From positions 1,504,001 to 1,568,000 of the forward strand of contig CAWEZH010000002.1 of the NCBI GenBank assembly GCA_963813535.1: a stretch of 64,000 nucleotides of DNA, written 5' to 3'. The stretch is from an uncultured Chloroflexia bacterium. Lineage in GTDB: Bacteria; Chloroflexota; Limnocylindria; Limnocylindrales; CSP1-4. Position 1 is the stretch's first letter; each line of letters opens with the position of its first letter. The notes beneath the pieces were generated by a model that saw only the letters and a program-made list of their open reading frames with translations, made no database searches and was not told where the DNA came from. Made by a program: the position numbers and the translations under genes. Shown here piece by piece: positions 2,752-64,000 of this stretch.

Positions 2752-4812
2752 TCAGGCCGCCACCACCTGGTTGCGCCCGCCTCGCTTCGCCATCTGGAGG
2801 CCGACGTCGGCGACCTCGAGGAGCGCCTCCAGGGTGGCCACCGCGGGTCCCAACGACGCGCAGCCGGCGGAGACCGTCGCGCGCAGGGACTCGCCGTCCG
2901 CACCGGTGAGCCGCGTCGACTCCAGCTCGCGCCGGATCTCGTCGGCCACGCGGTGCGCCTCCTCAGCCGTCGCGCCGTCCAGGATCGCCACGAACTCCTC
3001 GCCGCCGAACCGGGCGACGATATCGCTCGAGCGAAGTCGACCCGACAGGATCGACCCGAAGCTGCGCAGCACGGCGTCGCCGACGGTGTGGCCGTGCTGC
3101 TTGTTGAACTCGCCGAACTTGTCGAGATCGAACAGGATGATCGCGATCGGACGGCGCTCGTCCAGCGCCAGGCGTCCGCGCGAAGCGAAGAGCCGAGCCG
3201 TCGACACCTCCAGGTGGCGGCGATTCCACAGACCTGTGAGCGGGTCGCGGATCGCCGCATCGGCGACCCGTGCGTGGAGGTCGACGTTGGCCAGCGCGAG
3301 CGTTACCTGCGAGCCGATCAGCGGCATCGCTTCGAGCTCGAGCGCCGAGAACGCCTGGGTGAGGTCGTGCCGGCTGAGTGAGATCGCCCCGACGACTTCG
3401 TCCTCGTCGAGCAGCGGGATCGAGGCCGTGACCAGGACGTCGGAGACCCGGGCGCCCTGCACCGTGGAGGGGAAGGAGCTGCGCGGGAATGCCTCGGACG
3501 ACACGATCCGGCGCTCCCGCATCGCCTTGCCGGCCATCCCCTCCCCGACGGGGATGCGCGCCCCGACATAGCGCGTATCGCCACCTCGGATGGCGACGAT
3601 GCGATCGTCGCCGGTCGCAGGATCGCGCAGGATCAGCGTGACGATGTCGGCCTGGAGCGCCTCCGACACCGACGCGACGATCGCGGCGTGCGCCGTTTCG
3701 AGGTCGAGGCTGGCGGTCACCGACGAGCCGAACGCAGCGAGTCGCGCGAACAGCACGGCGCGCTCACGGAGGGCCTCGCGCTCGCGCGCGAGGGCGAGTG
3801 CTACGGAGATCCTGTCGCCGACGACGACCATCGTGTCGAGATCGGCCTCGTCGAGCGGGGCTGCGTCCTGGCCGCTCTCCACGTTGAGGATGCCGATGAC
3901 CGTGTCCCCGGCCCGAAGGGGGACACTGACTTCGCTGCGCACGTCCGGGCGAGCTGCGCGGTACTCGGGGTCTCGCTCGACGTCGACCACGAGCTCCGCC
4001 TCCCCGGTCCGCATGACGCGACCGACGACACCGACGCTGCCATCGAACGTCTCGATGACTTCCTCGTAGCCGCGTTGCGCGCCGAGTCGCATCAGGTCCC
4101 CGTCGCGCATGTAGATCGATGGGTAGCGATAGCCGAATCGCTCGACCAACAGCTCGACGACCTCGTCGAGTGCGGCAGACGTCGGTCCGTCGGCCGCGAG
4201 GACCCGACCGACCGCCTCGACCGCGGCCATCTGCCGTGCCCGTCGGCGGGACTGCGCGCTGGCGGCCCGCGAGTGCGCCACGGCCCGCTCGAGCATCGAC
4301 ACCGTGCGTCGTGTGCCGACGGCGAGGACGACGGCGGTGGCGCCGAGCGCGATACCGCGTTGGACCAGCCCTGTCTGGACCGCGGGAGTCGCGAACGCCG
4401 GTATGAAGTACACGGCGAGCGCTGCCGAGACGATCGCTGCACCGACTGCGATGGCCTGACGGGTGCCGAGCGCCGCCGCCATCGCCACGATCGGGAGGAC
4501 AAGCGACGCCAGCGGCAGCGTCGTCGGCTCACCCGTCCCGACACTCATCCACAACACCGCGACCAGGGCGAACAGGAGCCTCGCGGTGTCCTCCGCTTCG
4601 GACCGACGCCGTTTCGCGCGGAGGCCCAGGGCGCACTGCGTCCCGAGATAGACGAGCGACGGCACGACGACGAGCAGGGTGTCGCCGCGCGACGCCCACT
4701 CGATGACGAGCGCAGCGAGGACCACGGCGAGTGCGAGCAGGACGTGCGGATCGGCCGCGAGCCGCTTCAGGCTGCGACGCCAGGACGCGCGCGCCCGGTG
4801 CGATCGGATCAC
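2752..4812 (-). CDS. Membrane-anchored GAF-GAF-GGDEF diguanylate cyclase
   Basis: N-terminal hydrophobic helices, two GAF-like regions (SEVSVPL..IGILNVES; ASIPLL..VGAISLSR), then RDPLTGLWNRR, DLDKFGEFN, RSSD I-site and GGEEF. Confidence 0.92.
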   Translation of the reverse strand: MIRSHRARASWRRSLKRLAADPHVLLALAVVLAALVIEWASRGDTLLVVVPSLVYLGTQCALGLRAKRRRSEAEDTARLLFALVAVLWMSVGTGEPTTLPLASLVLPIVAMAAALGTRQAIAVGAAIVSAALAVYFIPAFATPAVQTGLVQRGIALGATAVVLAVGTRRTVSMLERAVAHSRAASAQSRRRARQMAAVEAVGRVLAADGPTSAALDEVVELLVERFGYRYPSIYMRDGDLMRLGAQRGYEEVIETFDGSVGVVGRVMRTGEAELVVDVERDPEYRAARPDVRSEVSVPLRAGDTVIGILNVESGQDAAPLDEADLDTMVVVGDRISVALALAREREALRERAVLFARLAAFGSSVTASLDLETAHAAIVASVSEALQADIVTLILRDPATGDDRIVAIRGGDTRYVGARIPVGEGMAGKAMRERRIVSSEAFPRSSFPSTVQGARVSDVLVTASIPLLDEDEVVGAISLSRHDLTQAFSALELEAMPLIGSQVTLALANVDLHARVADAAIRDPLTGLWNRRHLEVSTARLFASRGRLALDERRPIAIILFDLDKFGEFNKQHGHTVGDAVLRSFGSILSGRLRSSDIVARFGGEEFVAILDGATAEEAHRVADEIRRELESTRLTGADGESLRATVSAGCASLGPAVATLEALLEVADVGLQMAKRGGRNQVVAA

Positions 4813-52017: not shown

Positions 52018-52695
52018 ATGCCCCGACGCCAGGCAGCCTCGACCGCCGCGATCCGCTTCGACATCGTCGATGGGCCCGATGCGCAATCCTCCATCGCGGC
52101 TGCGACGGCGGCGATCGGTGGACGCATCCGAACGCTGTCGACGGTGCGGCCCATCGACGGCGAGCCGCCCCTCGTCGAGATCGAGCTCGAGGTCGAGGGT
52201 GTCGGCGAGGATGCGCTGGTCGCTGCGCTCGAGGGCGTCGGTGACGTGCGTCGGATCCACCGGACGCGGGCCCTCGGGACGGTGTTCGGCAAGCGGATCA
52301 TCGTCGTCGGCGGCGGGGCGCAGGTCGCCCAGGTCGCGCTCGGGGCGGTGAGCGAAGCCGACCGTCACAACCTACGCGGCGAGCGGATCTCGGTCGACAC
52401 CATCCCGCTGGTCGGCGAGGCCGACATCGCCGCCGCGGTCCGGGCGGTCGCGGACCTGCCCCGCGCCCGCCTGCTGGTCCTGGCCGGTTCGATCATGGGC
52501 GGTGACATCAGTGCGGCCGCCGATGAGCTCCGCGAGGTCGGTATCCCGATCATCGCGCTGAACATGGTCGGATCCATCACCGAGCACGTGGATCTGGTCG
52601 TGTCCGATCCCGTCCAGGCCGGGACGATGGCCGTCATGGCCGTCGCCGACACCGCCACCTTCGACCTCGACCGCCAACGCGGCCGACGATACTGA
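52018..52695 (+). CDS. ACT-like plus DUF5612-like protein
   Basis: FGKRIIVVGGGAQVAQVALGAVSEADRHNLRGERISVDTIPLVGE..LAGSIMGG..DPVQAGTMAVM recalls the DUF5612 family. Confidence 0.75.
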   Translation: MPRRQAASTAAIRFDIVDGPDAQSSIAAATAAIGGRIRTLSTVRPIDGEPPLVEIELEVEGVGEDALVAALEGVGDVRRIHRTRALGTVFGKRIIVVGGGAQVAQVALGAVSEADRHNLRGERISVDTIPLVGEADIAAAVRAVADLPRARLLVLAGSIMGGDISAAADELREVGIPIIALNMVGSITEHVDLVVSDPVQAGTMAVMAVADTATFDLDRQRGRRY

Positions 52696-52703
52696 GACGA
52701 CCG

Positions 52704-53654
52704 ATGCGGATCGCGACGTGGAACGTCAACTCGCTGAAGGCGCGCACCGACGCGGTCGACAAGTGGCTCGAGCGCGCCGACCCGGACATCCTGCTGATGC
52801 AGGAGACGAAGCTCTCGGACGAGGATGCTCCGGTCATGCAGTTCCGGATGGCCGGCTACCAGCTCATCCATCACGGCGAGGGTCGCTGGAACGGCGTGGC
52901 CATCGCGGCCCGCGAGGCGCTCACCGTCGACGACATCGTCACGAACTTCGGCGACGGCCCGGTGCGCGATAGCAGCGCCGGCGCCGGCGGTCTCGACGAG
53001 GAGGATTTCGATCCCTTCGATGAGGCACGGATGCTCTCGGCGGTCGTCGACGGGGTCAGGTTCGTGGCGCTCTATGCGCCGAATGGGCGGGTCGTCGGCA
53101 GCCCGTTCTACGAGGGCAAGCTGCGCTGGTTCGAGCGGGTCCGGCGATGGCTCGACGAGACGCGATCCGCTGACGAGCCGCTCATCCTCGCGGGCGACTA
53201 CAACGTGACCCCAGCCGACGAGGACGTGTGGGACCCGGTGAAGGCGCACGGCGGGACGCACGTGTCGGAGCCGGAGCGCGAGGCACTGGCCCGGCTGCGC
53301 GAGTGGGGCCTCACCGACGCCTACCGGTCGCAGGAGCAGCGCGGCGGCCGATTCAGCTGGTGGGACTACCGGGCCGGCATGTTCCATCGCAACGAGGGCA
53401 TGCGCATCGACCTGCTCTACGTGACGGAGCCCATCGCGAAGCGCGTCGTCTGGGCCGAGATCGACCGCGAGGCGCGGAAGGGCCCACCCGTCCCATCGGA
53501 CCATGCGCCCGTGGTGGTCGACCTCGATGACAAGGGGACGCCGTTCGATGCCGGCTGGGACGCGGCACTCGCCCGGATCCAGGCTCGGACGAAGCCCGGC
53601 GCGCGCAAGAGCCCCGCCCAGGTGCGGTACGAGAAGGAGCACCGACCAGGCTGA
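52704..53654 (+). CDS. xth: Exodeoxyribonuclease III
   Basis: ATWNVNS, QETK, YAPNG, GDYN, FSWWDYR, RID and SDHAP motifs. Confidence 0.95.
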   Translation: MRIATWNVNSLKARTDAVDKWLERADPDILLMQETKLSDEDAPVMQFRMAGYQLIHHGEGRWNGVAIAAREALTVDDIVTNFGDGPVRDSSAGAGGLDEEDFDPFDEARMLSAVVDGVRFVALYAPNGRVVGSPFYEGKLRWFERVRRWLDETRSADEPLILAGDYNVTPADEDVWDPVKAHGGTHVSEPEREALARLREWGLTDAYRSQEQRGGRFSWWDYRAGMFHRNEGMRIDLLYVTEPIAKRVVWAEIDREARKGPPVPSDHAPVVVDLDDKGTPFDAGWDAALARIQARTKPGARKSPAQVRYEKEHRPG

Positions 53655-53792
53655 CGGCCGGGGAGCTCGTTGCCGTGGGACGAGAACCGCGCCCCGATCC
53701 GTCGCGACAGGTCCGACCGGCCTCTCGCCTCGTTGCGGATGCCGAGACGCCGTGCACCGGGTCCCGAGGGGCGAACGTAGGCTCGCCGCCGG

Positions 53793-54914
53793 ATGACGGT
53801 CCCCAGCGACACCTCGGCTGAGATCCGCCTCATCGACCTGGAGAAGCGGTTCGGCGCGGTCCGGGCCGTCGACGGCGTCTCGCTCGACGTCCGGGCCGGC
53901 GAGTTCTTCTCTCTGCTCGGACCGTCCGGCTGCGGCAAGACCACGACCTTGCGGATGATCGGCGGGTTCGAGCTGCCGACCGCTGGTCGGATCCTGCTGC
54001 GCGGCCGCGACATCACCCACGAGCCGCCCGACAAGCGGCCGGTCAACATGGTGTTCCAGCAGTACGCCCTGTTTCCGCATCTCGACGTGGCCGGCAACGT
54101 CGGTTTCGGCCTGCGCCGCAAGAACGTCGATCGCGCCTCGATCGCCCGGCGCGTGGACGAGGCGCTCGAGCTGGTCCGCCTGCGGGGCTACGAGCGGCGG
54201 AGACCTCGTGAGCTGTCCGGCGGCCAGCAGCAACGCGTCGCCCTCGCCCGGGCCCTGGTCAACCGCCCGACGGTGCTGTTGCTCGACGAGCCACTGGGTG
54301 CGCTCGACCTGAAGCTCCGCCGCCAGCTCCAGATCGAGTTGAAGCGGATCCAGGCGGAGGTCGGGATCACCTTCGTGTACGTGACGCACGATCAGGAGGA
54401 GGCGCTCACCATGAGCGACCGCATCGCCGTGATGCAAGCCGGACGCGTGGAGCAGCTCGGCACGCCCGAGGAGCTGTACGAGCGACCGGCGACCAGGTTC
54501 GTGGCCGACTTCATCGGCACGACCAACCTGCTGACCGGGTCGGTCGAGTCGATCGACTCGGGCTCCGCCCTCGTCCGCCTGGAGGGCGGCGACGCGTGCC
54601 GAGTGGCCGGCCCGGACCTGCCGCCAGGACGCGCCGTCGAGCTGTCCATCCGGCCGGAATCGATCGTGATGCGACCCTCGAACGGCACCGCCCCGAGCGA
54701 CGACGAGCCGCTCCGAGCCCAGGTCGAGCAGGTCGCCTATCTCGGCGGCAGCGTCCAATACCAGGTCCGCACCCGCGGCGGGCTGTCCATCACCGTGCTG
54801 GCATCGAAGGCCGGCGAGCGCCACCCGGTCGGGAGCGACGTCGACATCGCATGGTCGCCGAGCGAGGCACTGATCCTCGCGCCGTCGACCGTCGAGGAGG
54901 AGGAACTGACATGA
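53793..54914 (+). CDS. potA: Polyamine-type ABC transporter ATPase
   Basis: [32 protein letters not shown]; TOBE-like tail. Confidence 0.9.
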
Positions 54915-56125
54915 CGGATCCGTACGACGGCTCGAGCATCGATCTCGAGAAGTCCCTCGTCCGCTACATGGTCGAGCGGCGCGTCACCCGCCGCGAGGTG
55001 CTGGAGCGCATCGCCGCCGTGGGCAGCGTCGCGGCGCTGGCGCCGATCATCGCGGCGTGCACGTCCAGCAGCGCAAGCCCGTCCGCCTCGGCCGCCGCCA
55101 GTGCGTCCGGGGCACCGGCAGGATCCGCCCCGGCCTCAGCCGGCCCGACCGCCGTCCCATCGCCCGAGGGTGAGCTCAACATCCTGAACTGGACCGACTA
55201 CCTGGCGGACGACGTGGTCGCGAGCTTCGAGGAGACGTACGGGGTGAAGGTCACCCAGAGCTACTTCTCGAACACCGACGAGATGTACACCAAGCTCGGC
55301 GACGACGGCGGCGACTACGACATCAGCTTCCCGATCTCGGTCGACGTCCCGAACATGATCGAGCGGGGCGTCATCGCCAAGCTCGACAAGTCGCTCCTGA
55401 CGAACATCGGCAATCTCGGCGAGGAGTGGGCCAACCCGGGCTACGACCCGGGCAACGAGTACACCGTCCCGTACATGTGGTGGACGACAGGCGTCGGCTA
55501 TGACCCCGCCCGCATCAAGGAGGAGCCCAGCAGCTCGAAGGCCCTCTGGGATGAACGCTGGAAGCAGCACGTCTCGATGCTGGATGACTGGCAGGAGGTC
55601 TTCGGGCTGACGCTGATCCAGCTCGGTCATTCGGCGAACACCGCGAACCCGGCCGAGCTCGATGAGGCCCTCGCGCTCCTCGAGCAGCAGAAGCCGCTCG
55701 TGCGCACCTACTCGACCGACACGATCGGCACGATGACGTCGGGCGACGTGTGGATCGGGCAGATCTGGGGCGCCGACCGCTTCGCGATCCAGGAGACGAT
55801 CCCCGACTTCGCCTACTACATCCCCGCGGAAGGCGGCGTGAAGGGGTCCGACACGGTCGCGACGTTCAGCGGATCGCCGCATCCCATCGCGTCACAGCTG
55901 TTCATCAATCACCTGCTCGAGGCGCACAACAGCGCGCTCAACACGAACCTCATCTACTACATGGGCCCGAACGCGGCCGCGAAGGAGTTCATCGATCCGG
56001 CGATCCTGGCCGACCCGACCATCAACCCGGAGCAGGAGATCGTCGACAAGCTCGAGGAGCTCCTGAGCCTCGACCAGGCGGTGCGCGACGAGTACCTATC
56101 GCGCTGGCAGCAGCTGCGAGGCTGA
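54911..56125 (+). CDS. potD: Polyamine-type ABC substrate-binding protein (Tat/lipoprotein-type leader)
   Basis: TRREVL..IIAAC leader; LNWTDY, DPGNEYTVPYMWWTTG and IPAEGG motifs. Confidence 0.87.
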   Translation: MTDPYDGSSIDLEKSLVRYMVERRVTRREVLERIAAVGSVAALAPIIAACTSSSASPSASAAASASGAPAGSAPASAGPTAVPSPEGELNILNWTDYLADDVVASFEETYGVKVTQSYFSNTDEMYTKLGDDGGDYDISFPISVDVPNMIERGVIAKLDKSLLTNIGNLGEEWANPGYDPGNEYTVPYMWWTTGVGYDPARIKEEPSSSKALWDERWKQHVSMLDDWQEVFGLTLIQLGHSANTANPAELDEALALLEQQKPLVRTYSTDTIGTMTSGDVWIGQIWGADRFAIQETIPDFAYYIPAEGGVKGSDTVATFSGSPHPIASQLFINHLLEAHNSALNTNLIYYMGPNAAAKEFIDPAILADPTINPEQEIVDKLEELLSLDQAVRDEYLSRWQQLRG

Positions 56126-56133
56126 CCCGACCG

Positions 56134-57045
56134 ATGGGGGCCGCGGCCCAGCCCGCAGACACACCCGCGGCCACGGTCGTACCGGTGCCCGGACGGCTCG
56201 GGCGGCTGCGGGCGGCGGCGCTGGTGTTGCCGGGCGTCACGTGGCTCGCGCTGTTCTTCATCGTGCCGCTCGGGATCATCTTCGTGGTGAGCCTCGGCTC
56301 ACGCGACGCGCTGAACCGGATCAGCCTGGCCCAGCCGACGCTCGACAACTACCTGCGCGTGTTCGATCCGGTCTTCCTGCCGACGTTCCTCAACTCGCTC
56401 AAGTACGCCGGGATCACCACGATCCTGTCGCTCGCCATCGGCTATCCGATCGCGTATTGGATCAGCCGGTACGGCGGGCGTCAGAAGGTGCTGTTGATCA
56501 TCCTGGTGATGCTGCCGTTCTGGACCAGCTACCTGATCCGGACCTACTCGTGGATCATCCTCCTGCGCGACAACGGCGTCGTGAACTCCCTGCTCCAGGC
56601 GATCGGGCTCACCAGCGAACCGATCATCCTGATGAACACCGACATCTCGGTCATCCTCGGCATGACGTACGGGTTCCTGCCGTTCGCGATCCTGCCACTG
56701 TTCGTCTCGATCGACCGGCTCGATCCCGATCTCGTCGCGGCGGCACGTGACCTGTACGCGTCGGGTCGCGGCGCGTTCCTCAACGTGACCCTGCCGCTGA
56801 CGATGCCCGGCATCATCGCCGCCGCGCTGCTGACGTTCATCCCGGCCCTCGGTGATTTCGTCACGCCCGACCTGCTCGGCGGCCCGCAGACAACGACCAT
56901 CGCCAAGAACATCCAGGAACTGTTCCTTGCCGGACGCGACTGGCCGTACGGCGCGGCGCTCGGATTCGTCTTGATGATCGTCACCCTCAGCGGGACGCTG
57001 CTCGCCCTCCGGACGCTTCGTCGGGAGGTCGTCGGTGGCGACTGA
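56134..57045 (+). CDS. potB: Polyamine-type ABC permease
   Basis: LPFWTSYLIRTYSW, LPFAILPL, AAARDL, LPLTMPG and FVTPDLLGG motifs. Confidence 0.9.
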   Translation: MGAAAQPADTPAATVVPVPGRLGRLRAAALVLPGVTWLALFFIVPLGIIFVVSLGSRDALNRISLAQPTLDNYLRVFDPVFLPTFLNSLKYAGITTILSLAIGYPIAYWISRYGGRQKVLLIILVMLPFWTSYLIRTYSWIILLRDNGVVNSLLQAIGLTSEPIILMNTDISVILGMTYGFLPFAILPLFVSIDRLDPDLVAAARDLYASGRGAFLNVTLPLTMPGIIAAALLTFIPALGDFVTPDLLGGPQTTTIAKNIQELFLAGRDWPYGAALGFVLMIVTLSGTLLALRTLRREVVGGD

Positions 57046-57066
57046 GCGCCTGGGCGGGCACTGACC

Positions 57067-57876
57067 ATGGTCCGTGAGCGGAACCGCTGGCTGACCGCGT
57101 ACGCGATGCTGGTCTACGCGTTCCTGTTCGCCCCGATCGTCGTGCTGATCGTCTACTCGTTCAATAAAGCGCGGCGAGGCCTGGTGTGGCAGGGCTTCAC
57201 GTTCGACTGGTACCCGAAGCTGTTCGCCAACGACGAGCTGCTCGACTCCCTGGTCGTGTCTCTCCAGGTCGCGGTCGTCGCCGTCATCGTGTCGACGGTC
57301 CTTGGCGCGCTGCTCGGTCTGGGCCTGGCGCGACTCCGGTTCCGTGGTCGCGGCGCGACCGAGACCCTGCTGCTCGTGCCGATGATCACGCCGGAGATCG
57401 TGATGGGCCTGTCGTTGCTGCTGTTCTTCCTGCAGGCGTTCGACGCGCACGGCTCGGTCGCCCAGCTATGGGTCGCCCACATCACGTTCTGCGTGTCGTA
57501 TGTGGCGGTCATCGTCCGGGCCCGGGCGGCCAACATGGACCCGCATCTCGAGGAGGCGGCCCGCGATCTCGGCGCGTCGGCGATGGGCGCCTTCCGGTAC
57601 GTCACGCTGCCGCTGATCGCGCCGGCGGTACTCGCCGGGGCGTTGCTGGCGTTCTCGCTGAGCTTCGACGACTACGTCGTCACGACGTTCAACGCGGGCG
57701 TCGGCAGCTCGACGCTGCCGCTCTACATCTACGGCGCCATCAAGTTCGGCGTCACGCCCGAGATCAATGCCATCTCGACGATCATCGTGGCCGTCACCGC
57801 GGTGGCCATCCTCATCGCGTGGCGGGCCGGGGCGTTCAACACCGCGACCGGTCGCCGGGTCACGGACGAGGGCTAG
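57067..57876 (+). CDS. potC: Polyamine-type ABC permease
   Basis: YSFN, FTFDWY, PEIVMG, EEAARDLGA, SFDD, TLPLYIY and PEINA motifs. Confidence 0.9.
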   Translation: MVRERNRWLTAYAMLVYAFLFAPIVVLIVYSFNKARRGLVWQGFTFDWYPKLFANDELLDSLVVSLQVAVVAVIVSTVLGALLGLGLARLRFRGRGATETLLLVPMITPEIVMGLSLLLFFLQAFDAHGSVAQLWVAHITFCVSYVAVIVRARAANMDPHLEEAARDLGASAMGAFRYVTLPLIAPAVLAGALLAFSLSFDDYVVTTFNAGVGSSTLPLYIYGAIKFGVTPEINAISTIIVAVTAVAILIAWRAGAFNTATGRRVTDEG

Positions 57877-59174
57877 CTCCCGGTCGCTGCCCTGGTCCTG
57901 GCCGCGGAGCGGGACGAGGTCGTCCCGCGGGGCAGGCGAACGGCGGCGACGTCTCCCTCGAACGTGTCCTCGTCGCCGTCCTTCGGCGTCGGGACGTCGT
58001 AGCGCAGCCGGACGGTGCGCTGCGAGTTCGTGCCATCGTTCGCGTAGCGGTCGACCGCCATGAGGTCGAAGGCATGGACGCTCGGCTCCTGGTTCGAGAA
58101 GCGACCCGCGCGCCAGCTCTGCGAGCGCGTGCCGCGCTGCTGGAGCTCGCAGACATGCCAGTCCTGGCGGTTGGTCAGGTCCCAGAACGCGATGGCATCC
58201 GAGGGATCGAAGTCGGACGCGGCGATCGTGTCGGGCTCGAACAGCCACTCGCAGATGATGCGCGTGTGATCCGGACCTGCCGGTTCGAGGCGATGGACGA
58301 GCAGGTAGTCCGGGTGGATCGACAGGAACGTCAGCGGCCAGACGAGGTAGTAGTAGATCCGCCGTTCGTCGATCGGCGTCATCCCGGGGATGGCCGGTCG
58401 GCCGCCGCGGTGGCCGCCGTCGACCGCCATCGTCTCAGCGCTCTCGACGAGCTCCATCCAGCCACCCTGCCATGGGCCGGTCGGGGCGAAGTCGCCGCCG
58501 AGGTCGTACGGCGTCAGCTTGTTCAGTTGAGGATGGATGCCCGGGCAGTGGTAGCACTCGCTGTAGTTCTCAGCCACGAACTTCCAGTTGGTCTCGACCT
58601 CGTACGTGACGGTGTGCGCGACGCGCAGACTGGCGAAGTCGAACCGTGCGAGGTGTGGCGGCAGATCGCCGAGCCACTCGATGAGCGGCGGCGTCTCCGG
58701 GGAGAGGCAGACGAACACGAAGCCCTGCCAGGTCTCCATCCGCACCGAGACCAGGCCGAAGTCCTTCATCTCGAAGTCCTCGAGGTCATCGGTGTGCTTG
58801 GCCCGGACGAGGTTCCCCTCCAGGTCGTAGATCCAGGCGTGATACGGACACTGGAACCGGACCGCAGAACCGCACTGCTCTTCGACGACGGCGGTGCCAC
58901 GATGGCGACACACGTTGTAGAAGGCGCGCAACTCGCCGTCGCGTCCGCGAGCGACCAGGAGTGGCTCGTCGTCGATCGCGGCCAGGAAGTACGTGCCGGC
59001 AGAGGGCGCGTCCTCCTCGCGCCCGACGACCATCCAGTCGCGCCGGAACCATTCCCGCTTCTCGAAGTCGTGGATCGCCGCGTCGTGATACGCGCGTCCG
59101 GGGAGCAACGACGCAGCCCGGTACGGCTTGCGGACGGCCGCGATCTCCTGCGCGGTCAGCGGACCCGTGGTCAT
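57873..59174 (-). CDS. Rieske non-heme iron oxygenase alpha subunit (choline monooxygenase/betaine demethylase-like)
   Basis: NVCRHRG, CPYHAW, NWKFVAENYSECYHCPGIHP and NRQDWHVCELQQRG; ATGA overlap with the upstream gene. Confidence 0.9.
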   Translation of the reverse strand: MTTGPLTAQEIAAVRKPYRAASLLPGRAYHDAAIHDFEKREWFRRDWMVVGREEDAPSAGTYFLAAIDDEPLLVARGRDGELRAFYNVCRHRGTAVVEEQCGSAVRFQCPYHAWIYDLEGNLVRAKHTDDLEDFEMKDFGLVSVRMETWQGFVFVCLSPETPPLIEWLGDLPPHLARFDFASLRVAHTVTYEVETNWKFVAENYSECYHCPGIHPQLNKLTPYDLGGDFAPTGPWQGGWMELVESAETMAVDGGHRGGRPAIPGMTPIDERRIYYYLVWPLTFLSIHPDYLLVHRLEPAGPDHTRIICEWLFEPDTIAASDFDPSDAIAFWDLTNRQDWHVCELQQRGTRSQSWRAGRFSNQEPSVHAFDLMAVDRYANDGTNSQRTVRLRYDVPTPKDGDEDTFEGDVAAVRLPRGTTSSRSAARTRAATGS

Positions 59175-60343
59175 GATTTCGGGACGTCCTTCTTCGGGTC
59201 GAGGAACGGGATGGCCGCGGTGCGTGCCGGCCAGCGTCCGCCGTCGGGTGCCTCGATCTCGAGGGGCGTGCCAGGCCCGGCGAGACCGATCGGCATCCAC
59301 ACGTAGCCGATGTTGCGTTGCAAACGAGGCGACCAGATCAGGTCGGTCACGGTCCCAACGTGTTCGCCGTCGTGGAATGCGCGGCACTTGCGGGACAGCT
59401 CGAAGGGCAGGGCCTCGCCGTCCATCTCGATGCCCACGAGCTTGCGATCGACGCCCGCGACGCGGATCCGCTCGAGCGCCGCCTTGCCGATGTAGTCGGC
59501 CTCCTGAGGCTCGACGAGGCGCTCCAGACCCATGACGTGGAATGGCGTGTCGGCGATCGTGATGTCCGACCCGTAGTTGAAGATGCCGGCCTCGATCCGG
59601 CGCGCCTCGCAGGGCGCGATCGGGCGGATGCCATGCGGGCGGCCGGCGTCCATGATCCGGTCCCACAGCTCGGCGCCGCGCGCCGGGTCGCGCAGGTAGA
59701 TCTCGTAGCCGACCTCGCCCGTCCAGCCGGTGCGCGAGATGACGACCGGGATACCGTCGAGCTCGGTCGTCAGCGTCCAGTAGTACTTGATGTCGAGGAT
59801 CTCGGGCCCGAACAGCGCGAGCAGCGTGTCCTTCGACTTCGGACCCTGGACCTGGACCGGGTAGACCTCCGGCTCACGGACCTTGACGTCCATGCCGCTG
59901 TGGATCGCGACGCCTCGTGCCCACAAGCCGGCATCGCTGTCGGCGAGTGCCAGCCACCAGCGGTCGGCCTCGACGCGGAGCAGCACCGGGTCGTTGACGA
60001 TGCCGCCGTCCTCGGCGGTGATCAGGACGTACTTGCCCTGGCCGACCGCACACTTCGTCAGGTCGCGGCAGGTCAGGGTGTTGACGAATGCCGAGGCATC
60101 CGGCCCGCTGATCTCGACGATCCGCTCGACCGAGACGTCCCACAGCGTCACGTCGTTGAGCAGCGCCCAATACTCCTCGATGGGGTCGGCGTAGTAACCC
60201 GGGAGGTACATGTGGTTGTAGATGTCGTAGGCGCTGCAACCCGCCTCGAGGGTCTTCTCGAAGAAGGGGGAGCGGCGATACCACGGGCCGAAGTAGAGGG
60301 TCGAGGATTCGGTCGTCGCGGGCGTCGCGAGCGGCGTGGTCAT
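59171..60343 (-). CDS. Stand-alone GcvT-fold aminomethyltransferase/THF-dependent demethylase (DmdA-like)
   Basis: YNHMYLP, LWDVSVER, GPDA, GGIVNDPV, QGPKS, SRTGWTGEVGYE and RRIEAG; GGAGG RBS. Confidence 0.9.
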   Translation of the reverse strand: MTTPLATPATTESSTLYFGPWYRRSPFFEKTLEAGCSAYDIYNHMYLPGYYADPIEEYWALLNDVTLWDVSVERIVEISGPDASAFVNTLTCRDLTKCAVGQGKYVLITAEDGGIVNDPVLLRVEADRWWLALADSDAGLWARGVAIHSGMDVKVREPEVYPVQVQGPKSKDTLLALFGPEILDIKYYWTLTTELDGIPVVISRTGWTGEVGYEIYLRDPARGAELWDRIMDAGRPHGIRPIAPCEARRIEAGIFNYGSDITIADTPFHVMGLERLVEPQEADYIGKAALERIRVAGVDRKLVGIEMDGEALPFELSRKCRAFHDGEHVGTVTDLIWSPRLQRNIGYVWMPIGLAGPGTPLEIEAPDGGRWPARTAAIPFLDPKKDVPKS

Positions 60344-60390
60344 GTGACGGGTGCCTCCCAACACGGCGGCGGACGGTCAGCCGATCGTGC

Positions 60391-60605
60391 AGCCTCCCCG
60401 TTCTATTGCCTGTCGTGTTCCGTCTGATGGCCCGCCCGGTGCGTCAGGCGCGACCGCGTGGCTGACGGGGCGCTGACGCGTGCCAGCGGGGCCGTCGGCA
60501 ACGGATCCAGGACCCTCGATAACGTCCTGGTGCCAGACGTGGCGATGCCCGGCTGGGATATCCCAACCGGGCATCTGTTCGGCCGATCTCCCCCCGGATG
60601 AGGCC
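60391..60605 (-). ncRNA. Candidate structured non-coding RNA or leader (family not recognised)
   Basis: Terminal closing helix plus at least five internal helices found by eye; starts 7 nt after a -10 box; no credible CDS. Confidence 0.6.
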
Positions 60606-60612
60606 AAAGCGA

Positions 60613-60641
60613 ACGTTACCCGGTACCTCGGTCCTATGCAA
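60613..60641 (-). promoter_or_regulatory. Sigma70-type promoter driving the structured RNA
   Basis: Minus strand TTGCAT (60641-36), 17 bp, TAACGT (60618-13). Confidence 0.65.
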
Positions 60642-60660
60642 TACCCCGGACCTTACAACT

Positions 60661-60699
60661 GGTGCGATTTCGCACCTCCCAGCGGGTTCGGTGACCCGC
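60661..60699 (-). terminator. Twin hairpins downstream of the beta-CASP gene
   Basis: GCGGGT-CACCGA-ACCCGC and GGTGCGA-AA-TCGCACC directly after the stop codon; poor U tail. Confidence 0.45.
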
Positions 60700-60706
60700 G
60701 GCGGGG

Positions 60707-62404
60707 CTAGTCGAGCGTCACCCGTTGATGCCAGTGCGGCACGTGGGTCTCGAACCCGAGCGCCCGCACCTTCGGTTCCAGGGCGACCTGCGCATCGGGG
60801 TCCCCGTGGACCAGGAAGACCCGCCTGGGGAAGCCGGGCTGGCCCGGCTGTTTTCCCTCCGCGAAGCGCCCGATCCAGTCGAGCAGCTCGTGCTCGTCGG
60901 CGTGGGCCGAGAACCCCGCGATCGAGCGGATCGTGCAGCGCACCTCGCGCGGCTGTCCGTCCAGCCGGACGGTGGTCGCCCCGGCCTGGAGGTGCGCGCC
61001 GAGCGTGCCCTCGCCCTGGTAGCCGACGAACAGGAGCGTCGCCTTCGGGTCGTCGATGAGGTTGCGCAGGTGGCCCACGACGCGGCCACCGGTGAGCATC
61101 CCGTTGGAGGCCACGATCATGTACGGCCGCGTGGCGAACTGGATCTGCTGCGACTCCTTTGGCGTGTTCGTCTCGATCTGGGCCGGGTAGTCGAGCGGCG
61201 TGTCCCCGCTCTGTAGCAATGCCGATGTCTCCTCGTCGAAGTACTGCGTATAGCGGCGGTAGATCTTCGAGGCCTTCTGCGCCATCGGCGAGTCGAGGTA
61301 GAGCGGCAGCAGCGGGATCTCGCCACGGTCGATGAGCCGGTCGAGCTCCCACACGACCTCCTGCGTGCGGCCGATCGCGAACGAGGGCACGAGCAGGACG
61401 CCCTCGGCATCGGCGACGAGCCGGACGGTCTCGGCCAGGATCCGGATCGCTTCGTGCTGCGGCTCGTGTTCGCGGCCGCCATACGTCGACTCGACGAGCA
61501 CGTAGTCCGCGGCGGTGAGGTAGGTCGGGTCACGGATGATCGGGGTGCCGGGGCGACCGAGGTCGCCCGAACAGACGATGACCCGCTCGACATCGCCGTC
61601 CCTGACACGTAACCGGATGATCGCCGAGCCCAGGATGTGCCCCGCATCGAGGAATGTCGCCCAGACGCCGGGCGCGACCTCGCGCTCCTCGTCGTACTCG
61701 ATCGGCCGGAAGTGCTCGATGGCTCGCTCCGCATCCTTGACCGTGTAGAGCGGCTCATCGAGGTCGATCTCGAGCGCGGGCGGCTGGGAGCGCAGTTCGA
61801 CTTCGGGGTCGCTCGTCGACCAGTCGTGCGGCGGCTCGGGCTCGATGCTGGTCTCGACGTGTTCGCCGCCGCCCGACACCTGCGCTGGCTCGGCCGTCAT
61901 CGCTTCCGCCGCAGCCGTCGCTGCCGCCACCGATCCGGCCGGGGCGCTCGCGGTCGCGACCGCACCCTCCTCGGACCCGCCGGCCGCGGCAAGGTCGATC
62001 GCGGCCTGGTACGCCTCGGCCTCGGCCTTGTCGTCCGCCTCGACCAGATCGGGGTGGCGCTTCTCCCAGCGGGCCTCGCGCTTCGCGAACTCCTCGTGCA
62101 GGTGACCGGAGTCGAGGAGGACGAGGGCCGCCAGCTCGACCGTCCCGGCCGTGGCATGGATCTTGCCCTGGTAGCCGGCCCTGACGAGCATCGGCAGGCG
62201 GCCGCAATGGTCGAGGTGGGCGTGGGTCAGGACGACGGCATCGAGCTCGCCCGGGTCGAACCCGAACGGCACCCGGTTGCGGACCGATTCATTCGGGCTG
62301 CCCTGGAACATCCCGCAATCGACCAGGACCTTCGAACGACCGGTCTCGAGGAGGAACTGGGAGCCCGTGACGGTCGTTGCGCCGCCGAGGAACGTGATCT
62401 GCAT
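60707..62404 (-). CDS. Metallo-beta-lactamase/beta-CASP RNA-processing nuclease
   Basis: [51 protein letters not shown] and LVHG motifs. Confidence 0.92.
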
Positions 62405-62473
62405 GCCGGGCATGGTGACAGGCCGAGTGGCGCGTCGGACGTCGCGTCCGGCTGACCCGGCGTGCCGGGCTCG

Positions 62474-64000
62474 TTACGGAAGCAGGACGAGGGCGTCGAT
62501 GGCGATGGCCACGAACAGCAGCGACAAGTAGCTGATCGAGTACTTGTAGAGGCGGATGGCACCTTGCGTCGATGCCTCCTCCGACGAACCCCGGCGCCAC
62601 AGCGAGATCGCCTGCCAGATGAACACCGCACCGAGCCCGACCGCCGCACCGAGGTACACGAGGCCCATCCGCGCGACCGGCCAGAGCACCAGCGAGATGG
62701 CGACCATCAGGAGCGTGTACAGCGCGATCTGGCGCGTGGTCTCGGGGATCCCCCGAACGACCGGCAGCATCGGCACGCCCGGCTGCAGCGTAGTCCTTGC
62801 GGATCCGCAGCGACAGCGCCCAGAAGTGGGGCGGCGTCCAGTAGAAGACCAGCGCGAACAGGATCAGTGCCGGGATCCCGACGTCGCCGGTCACGGCCGC
62901 CCAGCCGATGACCGGCGGGAGGGCCCCTGCGGCCCCGCCGATGACGATGTTCTGCGGTGTCGAGCGCTTGAGCAGCATCGTGTAGACGACGACATAGAAC
63001 GCGATGGCCAGCAGCGTCAGGAAGGCCGCCAGCAGGTTGATCGTCCACGCCATCAACCCGAACGACAGCACGCCGAGCACGATGCCGAACACGACCGCGT
63101 TCGCGGGCTCGACCTGGTGGGCCGGCAGCGGACGGCGTCGCGTGCGCGCCATGAGCGAGTCGATGTCGCGATCGAGATAGCAGTTGATGGCGTTGGCGCT
63201 GCCCGCGGCGAGCGTTCCGCCGACCATGGTCCAGAGGACGAGCCAGCCCCATTCGCCCCAGTCGAGACCGGGCACCCAGCGCGTTGCCAGGACCATCGCC
63301 GGGACGGTCGTGACGAGGAGCAGCTCGATGATCCGTGGCTTCGTCAGCGCGACGTAGGCACGCACGCGGTCCCCGGTCGAGGGTGAGACCTGCGGGGGCG
63401 AGCCGGTCGGCGCTTCGTCGCCGCTCCCGGCCGGCACCGAGCGCGCCGCGTAGTAGCTCGTGACGCTCAGTCCGACGAGCATCGCGAAGGTCACCGCCCC
63501 GAGGGAGAGGTGGAGCGTCTGGGTCCAGGCCGACAGACTGGTCAGGACCTGGAGCCCGCCGACGACGACCTGGATGGCGAAGAGGGCGGCCGCGCCGACC
63601 GCCAGTCGCACGATGACAGGCTGATCGCGCTGCGTGCGCCACGCGACGATGGCCACTCCCGCGACGATCGCACCGACCAGCGCCGCGACCCAGCGATGCA
63701 GCACATGCGCGGCGGTCAGCTCGGTGAGTGCCGGGACGAGCGACCCGTTCATGAGCGGCCAGTCAGGGAAGACGAGCGCGGAGTCGGTCGCGGTGACATT
63801 CGATCCGAAGAGCAGCAACGCGAACGTGGCAAGGGTCGCGAACGCGGCCAGCAGGGTGAACCGCTGGTTCGCGCCGGACCCGCCGAGGCGAGCCGGGTAC
63901 CCGGCACGGACGGTCACATACACCAGCAGTGCGACGAGCAGCATCGCCGCGGCGAGGTGGGCGGTCACCAATTCGCCGCTGTTCCCGAGCCTGACGGTCT
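62474..64000 (-). CDS. ctaB: Heme A synthase-like (CtaA/COX15) domain fused to heme O synthase (5' end outside window; apparent frameshift near 62779)
   Basis: [31 protein letters not shown] and WTPPHFWAL; upstream in the same frame VTAHL, FPDWPL, HVLHR and QTLHL are CtaA-type His motifs. Confidence 0.88.

Follow-up and report, generated by a model that had tools for sequence, protein, structure and literature searches.

Two separately conserved elements, a candidate small RNA and a putative control motif of demethylase genes, downstream of a beta-CASP ribonuclease gene in uncultured Chloroflexota

We examined a 64,000-nucleotide (nt) stretch of DNA, hereafter the window, from an uncultured Chloroflexia bacterium (assembly GCA_963813535.1, contig CAWEZH010000002.1), in which a gene-free gap of 363 nt extends on the minus strand from the end of a beta-CASP ribonuclease gene (60707) to the ATG of a GcvT-family gene (60343). 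An earlier interpretation made from the letters of this DNA, the sequence-only reading, had described positions 60605–60391 as one structured RNA of about 215 nt, either a riboswitch masking the Shine-Dalgarno sequence of the GcvT-family gene or an RNA-polymerase-binding RNA of the 6S/Ms1 type. Comparison with related genomes leads us to another explanation, to which we assign a probability of about 0.6: the region would consist of two unrelated conserved pieces, which we call modules A and B, joined by filler. Module A is a candidate for a new, narrowly distributed small RNA, lying next to what may be a new cis-regulatory motif, module B, which goes with demethylase genes.

The features on which this explanation is built, all on the minus strand, are:
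60613–60641, promoter of module A (−35 TTGCAT at 60641–60636, a 17-nt spacer, and −10 TAACGT at 60618–60613)
60532–60605, module A, a conserved 74-nt RNA candidate delimited with covariance models R1 and R2
60605–60581, hairpin 1 of module A, 25 nt, with GGCC/GGCC closing pairs and a G-rich apical region
60580–60576, linker of module A
60575–60544, hairpin 2 of module A, 14 bp
60543–60532, pyrimidine-rich tail of module A
60455–60531, lineage-specific spacer, holding a CCAGGAC/GUCCUGG hairpin and most of a GGCCC/GCGUCAG arm
60371–60454, module B, a conserved sequence motif made of palindrome-like sites and blocks
60450–60442, palindrome-like site CGCCTGACG of module B
60429–60421, palindrome-like site CATCAGACG of module B
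further blocks of module B: GGAAC, GGCAATAG (60410–60403) and CACGATCGG (60389–60381)

Two conserved blocks separated by a variable middle

The 363-nt gap was compared by BLAST with 60 relatives, 36 from the same genus and 24 from the sister family. Matches were obtained in eight of the same-genus genomes and in none of the sister family, and only two blocks of the query were conserved, 21–178 (window 60686–60529) and 235–363 (60472–60344); in seven loci, the spacing between the beta-CASP gene and the gene downstream varied from 123 to 583 nt. Because the conserved sequence forms two separate blocks around a variable gap, we analysed module A, the 5' block, and module B, the 3' block, each on its own. 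Conservation ends sharply with module A, at query positions 174–178 in genomes G024, G036 and G021, and the spacer at 60455–60531 gave no BLAST match in the relatives except in G025, where it aligned over its full length with 76% identity, and in G024, where the match covered its 3' edge. Likewise, the distance from the end of module A to the GGCA block of module B ranges from 32 to 535 nt in the 35 genomes that carry both modules. Positions 60531–60455 would thus represent lineage-specific filler.

As a description of this one sequence, the proposed fold holds. The minimum-energy structure of 60605–60391 reproduces the architecture that had been described, with its closing helix, 14-bp hairpin, CCAGGAC hairpin and long arm, and its energy of −114.6 kcal/mol compares with −93.3 ± 4.9 kcal/mol for 200 shuffled sequences, none of which folded as well (z = −4.36). 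Most of this signal is held by the first 74 nt alone, since module A by itself gives a z-score of −4.41, and the value for the whole 363-nt gap is −2.75. A convincing fold of a single sequence (z = −4.4) can therefore arise from unrelated elements that happen to adjoin.

The helices that would join the two ends of the region are not conserved. We evaluated, in the 35 genomes with both modules, the duplex between the first 12 nt of module A and the block that follows GGCAWURG in module B, using as a control partners taken from other genomes. The 5' sequence GGCCUC..UCCG can indeed pair with 60400–60391 in this genome (−16.5 kcal/mol), and the duplex is also strong in G025 (−17.5) and L074 (−14.4), but across genomes it is no better than with mismatched partners (median −7.0 in both cases). 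Similarly, the long-range CGUCUG/CAGACG helix, which involves the tail of module A, is present here (−10.3 kcal/mol), but its median over the 35 genomes equals that of the control (−7.2 for both). The CCAGGAC/GUCCUGG hairpin and the arm at 60493–60429 also exist here, but these middle hairpins lie in unconserved sequence. The suggestion that the 5' end masks the Shine-Dalgarno sequence is not supported either: the 5' hexamer of module A is GGCCUC in 25 of 41 homologues, GGCCUU in 12, GGCCUA in two and GGCCUG in two, so that the sixth base varies, and a CCUC/GGAGG pairing fits any Shine-Dalgarno sequence. With the medians of the closing and long-range helices equal to those of their controls, and with a masking base that varies, the model of a single RNA closed by a 5'/3' helix is unsupported.

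The sequence-only reading had recognised no known RNA family in the region, and this was borne out. Using cmscan with 4227 Rfam families on positions 58000–63000 (E ≤ 10), we retrieved three matches, none of them credible in the region; the sole one falling within it, mir-2057 (18.5 bits, E = 6), lies on the palindromic hairpin and was rejected. The same analysis of nine related loci (E ≤ 1) yielded three weak matches elsewhere and none on module A or B. In all, the earlier reading was partly confirmed as an observation and partly supported as an interpretation.

The variable middle has features of its own. The spacers between modules A and B in loci L056, L058 and L061 each contain two short palindromic hairpins with the pattern TGCCGYSCCRCGGCA, and there are only three strict copies of this type of hairpin in the source genome (G000), at C1:167744, C2:676220 and C2:839506.

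A conserved promoter and a covarying hairpin in module A

A first covariance model of module A, built from 17 distinct copies, gave matches in 53 of 131 genomes from the genus (in 12 of the 24 with high quality), always with one full-model match on the sense strand per genome. The homologue set used throughout comprises 41 sense-strand matches, weaker ones included, and leaves out L091, which has no beta-CASP neighbour, as well as eight antisense matches of the palindromic hairpin.

All 41 homologues keep a promoter with the layout TTGnnn, a spacer of 17 nt (34 copies), 18 nt (six) or 19 nt (one), TAnnnT, and 6–8 nt to GGCC, and the spacer sequence is almost wholly different between distant copies. 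The promoter that had been proposed for this locus, TTGCAT and TAACGT separated by 17 nt and followed by G60605 7 nt further on, is therefore a conserved one. This constitutes strong comparative evidence for a predicted sigma-70-type promoter with its start at or beside G60605. A strict consensus scanner passes over it, because the −35 hexamer matches just three of the six bases.

The hairpin described at 60575–60544 was found to be present, and compensatory changes maintain its pairing among homologues. Eight of its 14 pairs have changed on both sides, 97% remain paired, and none of 500 shuffles reached the observed values, a test that overstates significance because the homologues are related, coming from one genus plus one other genus. 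In the alignment of module A (41 sequences, 40 of them distinct), 97.8% of the cells pair versus 89.2% in shuffles, and sliding the 3' partner by 1–3 columns, as a control, left 26–56% paired. All of the pairs changed on both sides sit in hairpin 2; hairpin 1 is invariant in its closing pairs and through most of its interior, which leaves its fold neither supported nor contradicted.

We found no conserved reading frame in module A among the 41 homologues. Frames starting at the hairpin AUG span from 13 to more than 200 codons and shift between groups, and four homologues have no ATG, GTG or TTG at this position; a small open reading frame (ORF) starting there was ruled out on these grounds. 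Most copies would allow a pseudoknot in which the tail pairs with the hairpin 1 loop, with one compensatory change (L069), and we do not claim it because a run of G can pair with any pyrimidine run.

From these features, module A would be transcribed separately, as an RNA of about 75–80 nt made from its own sigma-70-type promoter and starting at or next to G60605. Hairpin 2 might mark or stabilise its 3' end, and the RNA could act by base pairing, or by protein binding, through the invariant single-stranded parts of the G-rich hairpin 1 and through the tail.

Distribution and genomic neighbourhood of module A

In a sample at the level of the order, module A was detected in 10 of 21 genomes of the genus and in none of 42 from the sister family. 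G200, which belongs to another genus, contains one true homologue according to model R2, which has the promoter and a beta-CASP gene beside it, together with a B-like motif that precedes a GcvT relative. Six other matches at the family level (L093–L098) are not beside a beta-CASP gene and lack the promoter, and were taken as ordinary terminator-like hairpins. A pattern scan for module A in all species genomes returned at least 120 stretches, mostly chance occurrences; among the 80 matches listed, four were real as judged with R2. As far as sampled, then, modules A and B appear to occur only in a single genus of uncultured Chloroflexota from soil and in one neighbouring genus.

In each of the 41 loci, the start of module A lies 57–143 nt beyond the end of the beta-CASP gene. 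The class of the gene next downstream is not constant: it is GcvT-like in 19 loci, MttB-like in 11, a Rieske oxygenase gene in eight, a convergent xthA gene in two and unrecognised in one. The MttB-like label was assigned from the protein of locus L067, which reached 276 bits with TIGR02369, under the cut-off of 525, and was extended to the others by tblastn with that protein. Module A thus tracks the beta-CASP gene and not a downstream gene class, which argues against a riboswitch for the demethylase operon.

The genomes G006 (93% complete) and G093 (95% complete) are particularly informative, because the convergent xthA gene ends only 32 and 26 nt, respectively, past module A. Both keep its promoter and structure, with scores of 78 bits in G006 and 47 bits in G093, and neither contains a credible copy of module B, the two matches to a looser pattern found in each being unlike B. 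Their best relatives of the GcvT-like protein show 31–37% identity. Module A therefore persists where the demethylase genes are missing. In several other loci, xthA is found beyond the demethylase genes. We propose, from these gene orders, that module A belongs to a conserved backbone formed by the beta-CASP ribonuclease gene, A and the convergent xthA-like gene, and that a variable, B-carrying cassette was inserted between A and xthA.

Within the MttB-like gene of G140, positions 3156–3255 (plus strand) of locus L076 gave a weak match to PYLIS_3 (24.3 bits, gathering threshold 38, E = 0.31), which is probably shared coding sequence and not evidence of pyrrolysine use.

Module B, a conserved motif upstream of demethylase genes

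Module B is carried by 35 of the 41 loci that have module A, and consists of blocks in a fixed order: CRYC-N-GRYG, SRAC, about six variable bases, GGCAWURG, 7–8 variable bases, AKG and ACSAUCG. It also occurs without module A, in G110 and G008, where it precedes GcvT-like and MttB-like genes, and likewise in L009 and L010. The two modules are therefore independent of each other. Unlike A, module B does show a constant class of downstream gene, namely GcvT-like, Rieske and MttB-like demethylases. In the leaders that we read through, its blocks end about 20–50 nt before the Shine-Dalgarno sequence, and in L128 the distance from module B to the start codon is about 100 nt or more. A nhmmer profile built from the 35 copies found a single copy in the source genome (E = 9.8e-17); a second candidate (E = 0.052) sits in apparently coding sequence and was discarded. 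In a scan of 401 genomes, pattern matches outside the genus (g1) had inner sequences unlike those of B, and several were identical across genera; these matches, which were not inspected singly, suggest coding sequence.

The 35 copies do not show a common RNA fold. RNAalifold produced a consensus of −0.7 kcal/mol with three pairs, and an exhaustive scan of all column pairs revealed no helix. The most regular feature is instead the degenerate 9-bp palindrome CRYC-N-GRYG (4-1-4), centred 15 or 17 nt before GGCA in 34 of the 35 copies, with extra copies about 21 nt upstream in seven and about 43 nt downstream in four. There are 52 such sites in the 35 copies versus 3.9 ± 2.0 in shuffles, an excess that mainly restates conservation because the copies are related. 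The halves of the palindrome vary independently.

We also considered whether module B could be a promoter, and rejected it: the MttB-type copies have not retained its best −10-like hexamer (TAGGAT or TAGAAC), no −35 fits, and we recognised no canonical −35/−10 inside it by reading. Likewise, an ANTAR-type dual hairpin or a three-way junction was discarded as a general description, because its loops and stems are inconsistent between GcvT-type and MttB-type copies.

Module B would serve as control region for a cassette of variable content, situated between module A and xthA, whose genes encode demethylases of methylamines or methylsulfonium compounds (GcvT/DmdA-like, Rieske/GbcA-like and MttB-like). 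As to how it acts, we give about even odds to an operator or promoter region for a putative dimeric regulator, which would bind the palindromic sites at a weak promoter; we favour this over a riboswitch, although action at the DNA level is deduced from the form of the motif. In either case, module B would be a shared control element before three mechanistically unrelated demethylase families, marking a regulon for the breakdown of methylated osmolytes such as glycine betaine and compounds like dimethylsulfoniopropionate (DMSP), and would give a handle for finding its regulator or ligand.

In locus L022 (G074), at approximately positions 1500–1660 of the oriented locus, module B is followed by the first 12 or so codons of a GcvT-like gene and, directly joined to these, by the Rieske gene, an apparent deletion of the GcvT-like gene.

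Genes surrounding modules A and B

The genes and signals around the two modules in the window are:
60707–62413, minus strand, ribonuclease gene of the metallo-beta-lactamase (MBL) fold, beta-CASP/RMMBL type, 568 amino acids (Pfam Lactamase_B, Beta-Casp and RMMBL)
60661–60676, minus strand, small hairpin after the beta-CASP stop codon, with a 6-bp stem and a 4-nt loop, read and folded
60341–60359, minus strand, Shine-Dalgarno GGGAGG (60359–60354) and ATG (60343–60341) of the GcvT-like gene, where the tblastn matches of relatives begin at residue 1
59171–60343, minus strand, GcvT-family aminomethyltransferase gene (Pfam GCV_T and GCV_T_C)
57873–59135 (start approximate), minus strand, Rieske oxygenase gene (Pfam Rieske and Ring_hydroxyl_A)
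52527–53651, plus strand, Exo_endo_phos (xthA-like) gene, 6.9 kb from module A and behind a transporter

The best NCBIfam models for the 568-residue protein are an aCPSF1-like and a Cas14-like beta-CASP model, both with scores under their cut-offs; since no RNase J model appeared among the NCBIfam matches, we keep the name beta-CASP ribonuclease and do not call it RNase J. The protein resembles CPSF73/aCPSF1, and a low-complexity insert rich in Ala and Glu separates its MBL and beta-CASP domains. The hairpin at 60661–60676 is probably the 3' end or terminator of this gene, and a hairpin of the GGUGC..GCACC type was seen at the same place in most relatives when their flanks were read by eye.

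On the other side of the gap, the GcvT-family protein is closest to the DMSP demethylase DmdA (NCBIfam, 314 bits, under the cut-off of 410), and the Rieske oxygenase to the glycine betaine monooxygenase subunit GbcA (220 bits, under the cut-off of 670). The island between module A and the xthA-like gene comprises, in the source genome, these two genes and a convergent Pot-like ATP-binding cassette (ABC) transporter. From 52527 to 57876 the plus strand encodes the xthA-like protein and then the Pot-type transporter, its ATPase preceding its permeases, convergent with the Rieske/GcvT-like pair; owing to this position, the transporter may import the substrate of the demethylases. Further out, at 62289–63971 on the minus strand, a single ORF fuses a COX15/CtaA domain to a UbiA/CtaB prenyltransferase domain, that is, the pair for synthesis of heme A and heme O.

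Alternative explanations

The sequence-only reading had also suggested that the region senses a methylated-amine signal, an idea that survives for module B only, and for which B offers no evidence of RNA structure of its own beyond one pair. Module B might nonetheless act as RNA, as a riboswitch for a methylated-amine-related signal or as the target of an RNA-binding regulator placed over three unrelated demethylase families; we consider this a tentative possibility, less probable than the operator. It would explain why B is always on the sense strand, at the distances from the Shine-Dalgarno sequence given above, and why the genes it precedes (GcvT-like, Rieske, MttB-like) have in common a class of substrate and not a cofactor. 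In G110, moreover, only about 75 nt lie between the beta-CASP stop codon, upstream, and module B, with no canonical promoter visible. The one hint of RNA structure is a pair flanking the palindrome that covaries (C-G in 17 copies, G-C in 12, broken in six), as would fit an RNA hairpin, which in L074 and L085 has 5 bp and a 7-nt loop; this pair, together with the finding of no regulator gene among the genes of the island in the source genome, counts against the operator. A three-way junction can likewise be drawn, by reading only, in MttB-type copies, but the helices drawn for these are not common to GcvT-type copies. The minimal consensus fold and the absence of any helix in the column-pair scan also speak against an RNA, as does the palindrome core, whose independently varying halves are what a dimeric DNA-binding protein would select. 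Finally, close relatives have either CCCC or GGGG in the segment that separates GGCAWURG from AKG, and no partner changes along with it.

The second alternative concerns module A, which could be, instead of a separate gene, the promoter of the demethylase cassette together with the beginning of its leader, with hairpins that protect the 5' end or attenuate transcription; the copies adjacent to xthA would then be left-overs of deletions. We regard this as unlikely, while granting it serious weight, for several observations run counter to a free-standing small RNA. The next recognised gene is on the same strand in 38 of the 41 loci, 73–917 nt past module A, and since no other conserved canonical promoter was seen by reading before this co-directional gene, A could equally be the first part of its leader. 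In L085, module B starts about 25 nt after hairpin 2. No U-tract follows hairpin 2 in the source genome, so that termination there is an assumption, and canonical terminator-like sites are not enriched in the surrounding 20 kb (five versus 3.8 ± 2.2 expected). Besides the fixity of hairpin 1 and the relatedness of the homologues noted above, complements of the loop, linker and tail of module A (up to three mismatches) gave only scattered matches in the source genome, none outstanding, and one soil sequencing run, guessed to be RNA and containing 5% of the sampled words, gave contigs of relatives over coding parts and none on 60261–60914, which is uninformative either way.

Against a leader, module A keeps its promoter and structure in G006 and G093, where the cassette and module B are missing and a convergent gene lies 26–32 nt away. 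Conversely, the cassette genes with module B exist without A, in G110, G008 and others, and hence the cassette does not need the promoter of A. The abrupt end of conservation after the tail, and a distance between A and B of 32 to 535 nt, are also difficult to reconcile with a leader. Module A as a clean candidate for a small RNA, with a conserved promoter, a proven hairpin 2, one copy per genome and a fixed neighbour, is thus the explanation that we prefer.

A further alternative, which we hold to be very unlikely, would reduce module A to a terminator, either of the beta-CASP gene alone or working in both directions for this gene and xthA, with promoter hexamers that are incidental. Its constant position after the beta-CASP gene, its location between convergent genes in G006 and G093, and the palindromic hairpin 2, which folds on the other strand too and so produces the weak antisense matches, would all be expected of a terminator. 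However, all 41 homologues retain both hexamers at this spacing, although the sequence of the 17-nt spacer itself is almost entirely replaced, and a terminator would require neither; the stop codon has a small hairpin of its own behind it, which precedes the −35; and the invariant 25-nt hairpin 1 would be left without a role.

Lastly, a single RNA of about 215 nt (60605–60391) has next to no probability, despite its good fold and strong closing duplex in this genome and the strong duplexes in G025 and L074, because the middle is unconserved and varies several-fold in length, the modules occur separately, only hairpin 2 covaries, A follows the beta-CASP gene with the next gene at a variable distance, which does not suit one riboswitch, and the conserved unit of about 74 nt falls short of the length of a 6S/Ms1-type RNA and does not have its shape, with no Rfam match to such an RNA.

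Comparison with known systems

To our knowledge, regulatory RNAs are almost unknown in the Chloroflexota, a major and largely uncultured soil phylum. No RNA or motif such as those described here came up in full-text searches, as judged from their listings and the openings of abstracts, supplements excluded. The significance of both modules would rise sharply if B were an RNA sensor of methylated amines, or if A were linked to the beta-CASP ribonuclease. The joint proposal, in which B is a sensor of quaternary amines or methylsulfonium compounds at the RNA level (a riboswitch or the target of an RNA-binding regulator) that switches on whichever demethylase is present, and A is a trans-acting small RNA tied to the ribonuclease, strikes us as rather improbable.

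The 6C RNA of actinobacteria is an independently transcribed small RNA with two hairpins and a C-rich loop. Module A is similar in having its own promoter, a size of about 70–80 nt, two stem-loops, a single-stranded loop rich in one base, one copy per genome and a clade-restricted distribution; it differs in that its loop is G-rich and not C-rich, its host belongs to the Chloroflexota, no U-tract terminator follows and there is no Rfam match. The 6S and Ms1 RNAs bind RNA polymerase and, at about 180–300 nt, enclose a central bubble with a long closing stem. Module A resembles these in its independent promoter and lack of coding potential, but the conserved unit here has 74 nt, the closing stem is not conserved and no 6S model matches.

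Module B shares with the glycine (gcvT motif) and tetrahydrofolate (THF) riboswitches a position upstream of a GcvT-family gene. Neither riboswitch was matched, however, in the window (E ≤ 10) or in the nine relatives (E ≤ 1); module B has no conserved helices, and it is also found before Rieske and MttB-like genes. Its likeness is greater to the operator arrays of dimeric transcription factors at catabolic operons, as it has a fixed palindrome with extra copies at about 21 and 43 nt, conservation at the level of sequence and a single locus per genome; it departs from them in having no regulator gene in the island and no canonical −35/−10, and in the one flanking pair that covaries. In all, the closest known kinds would be, by analogy, the two-hairpin small RNAs with their own promoter for module A, and the operator arrays of catabolic operons for module B.

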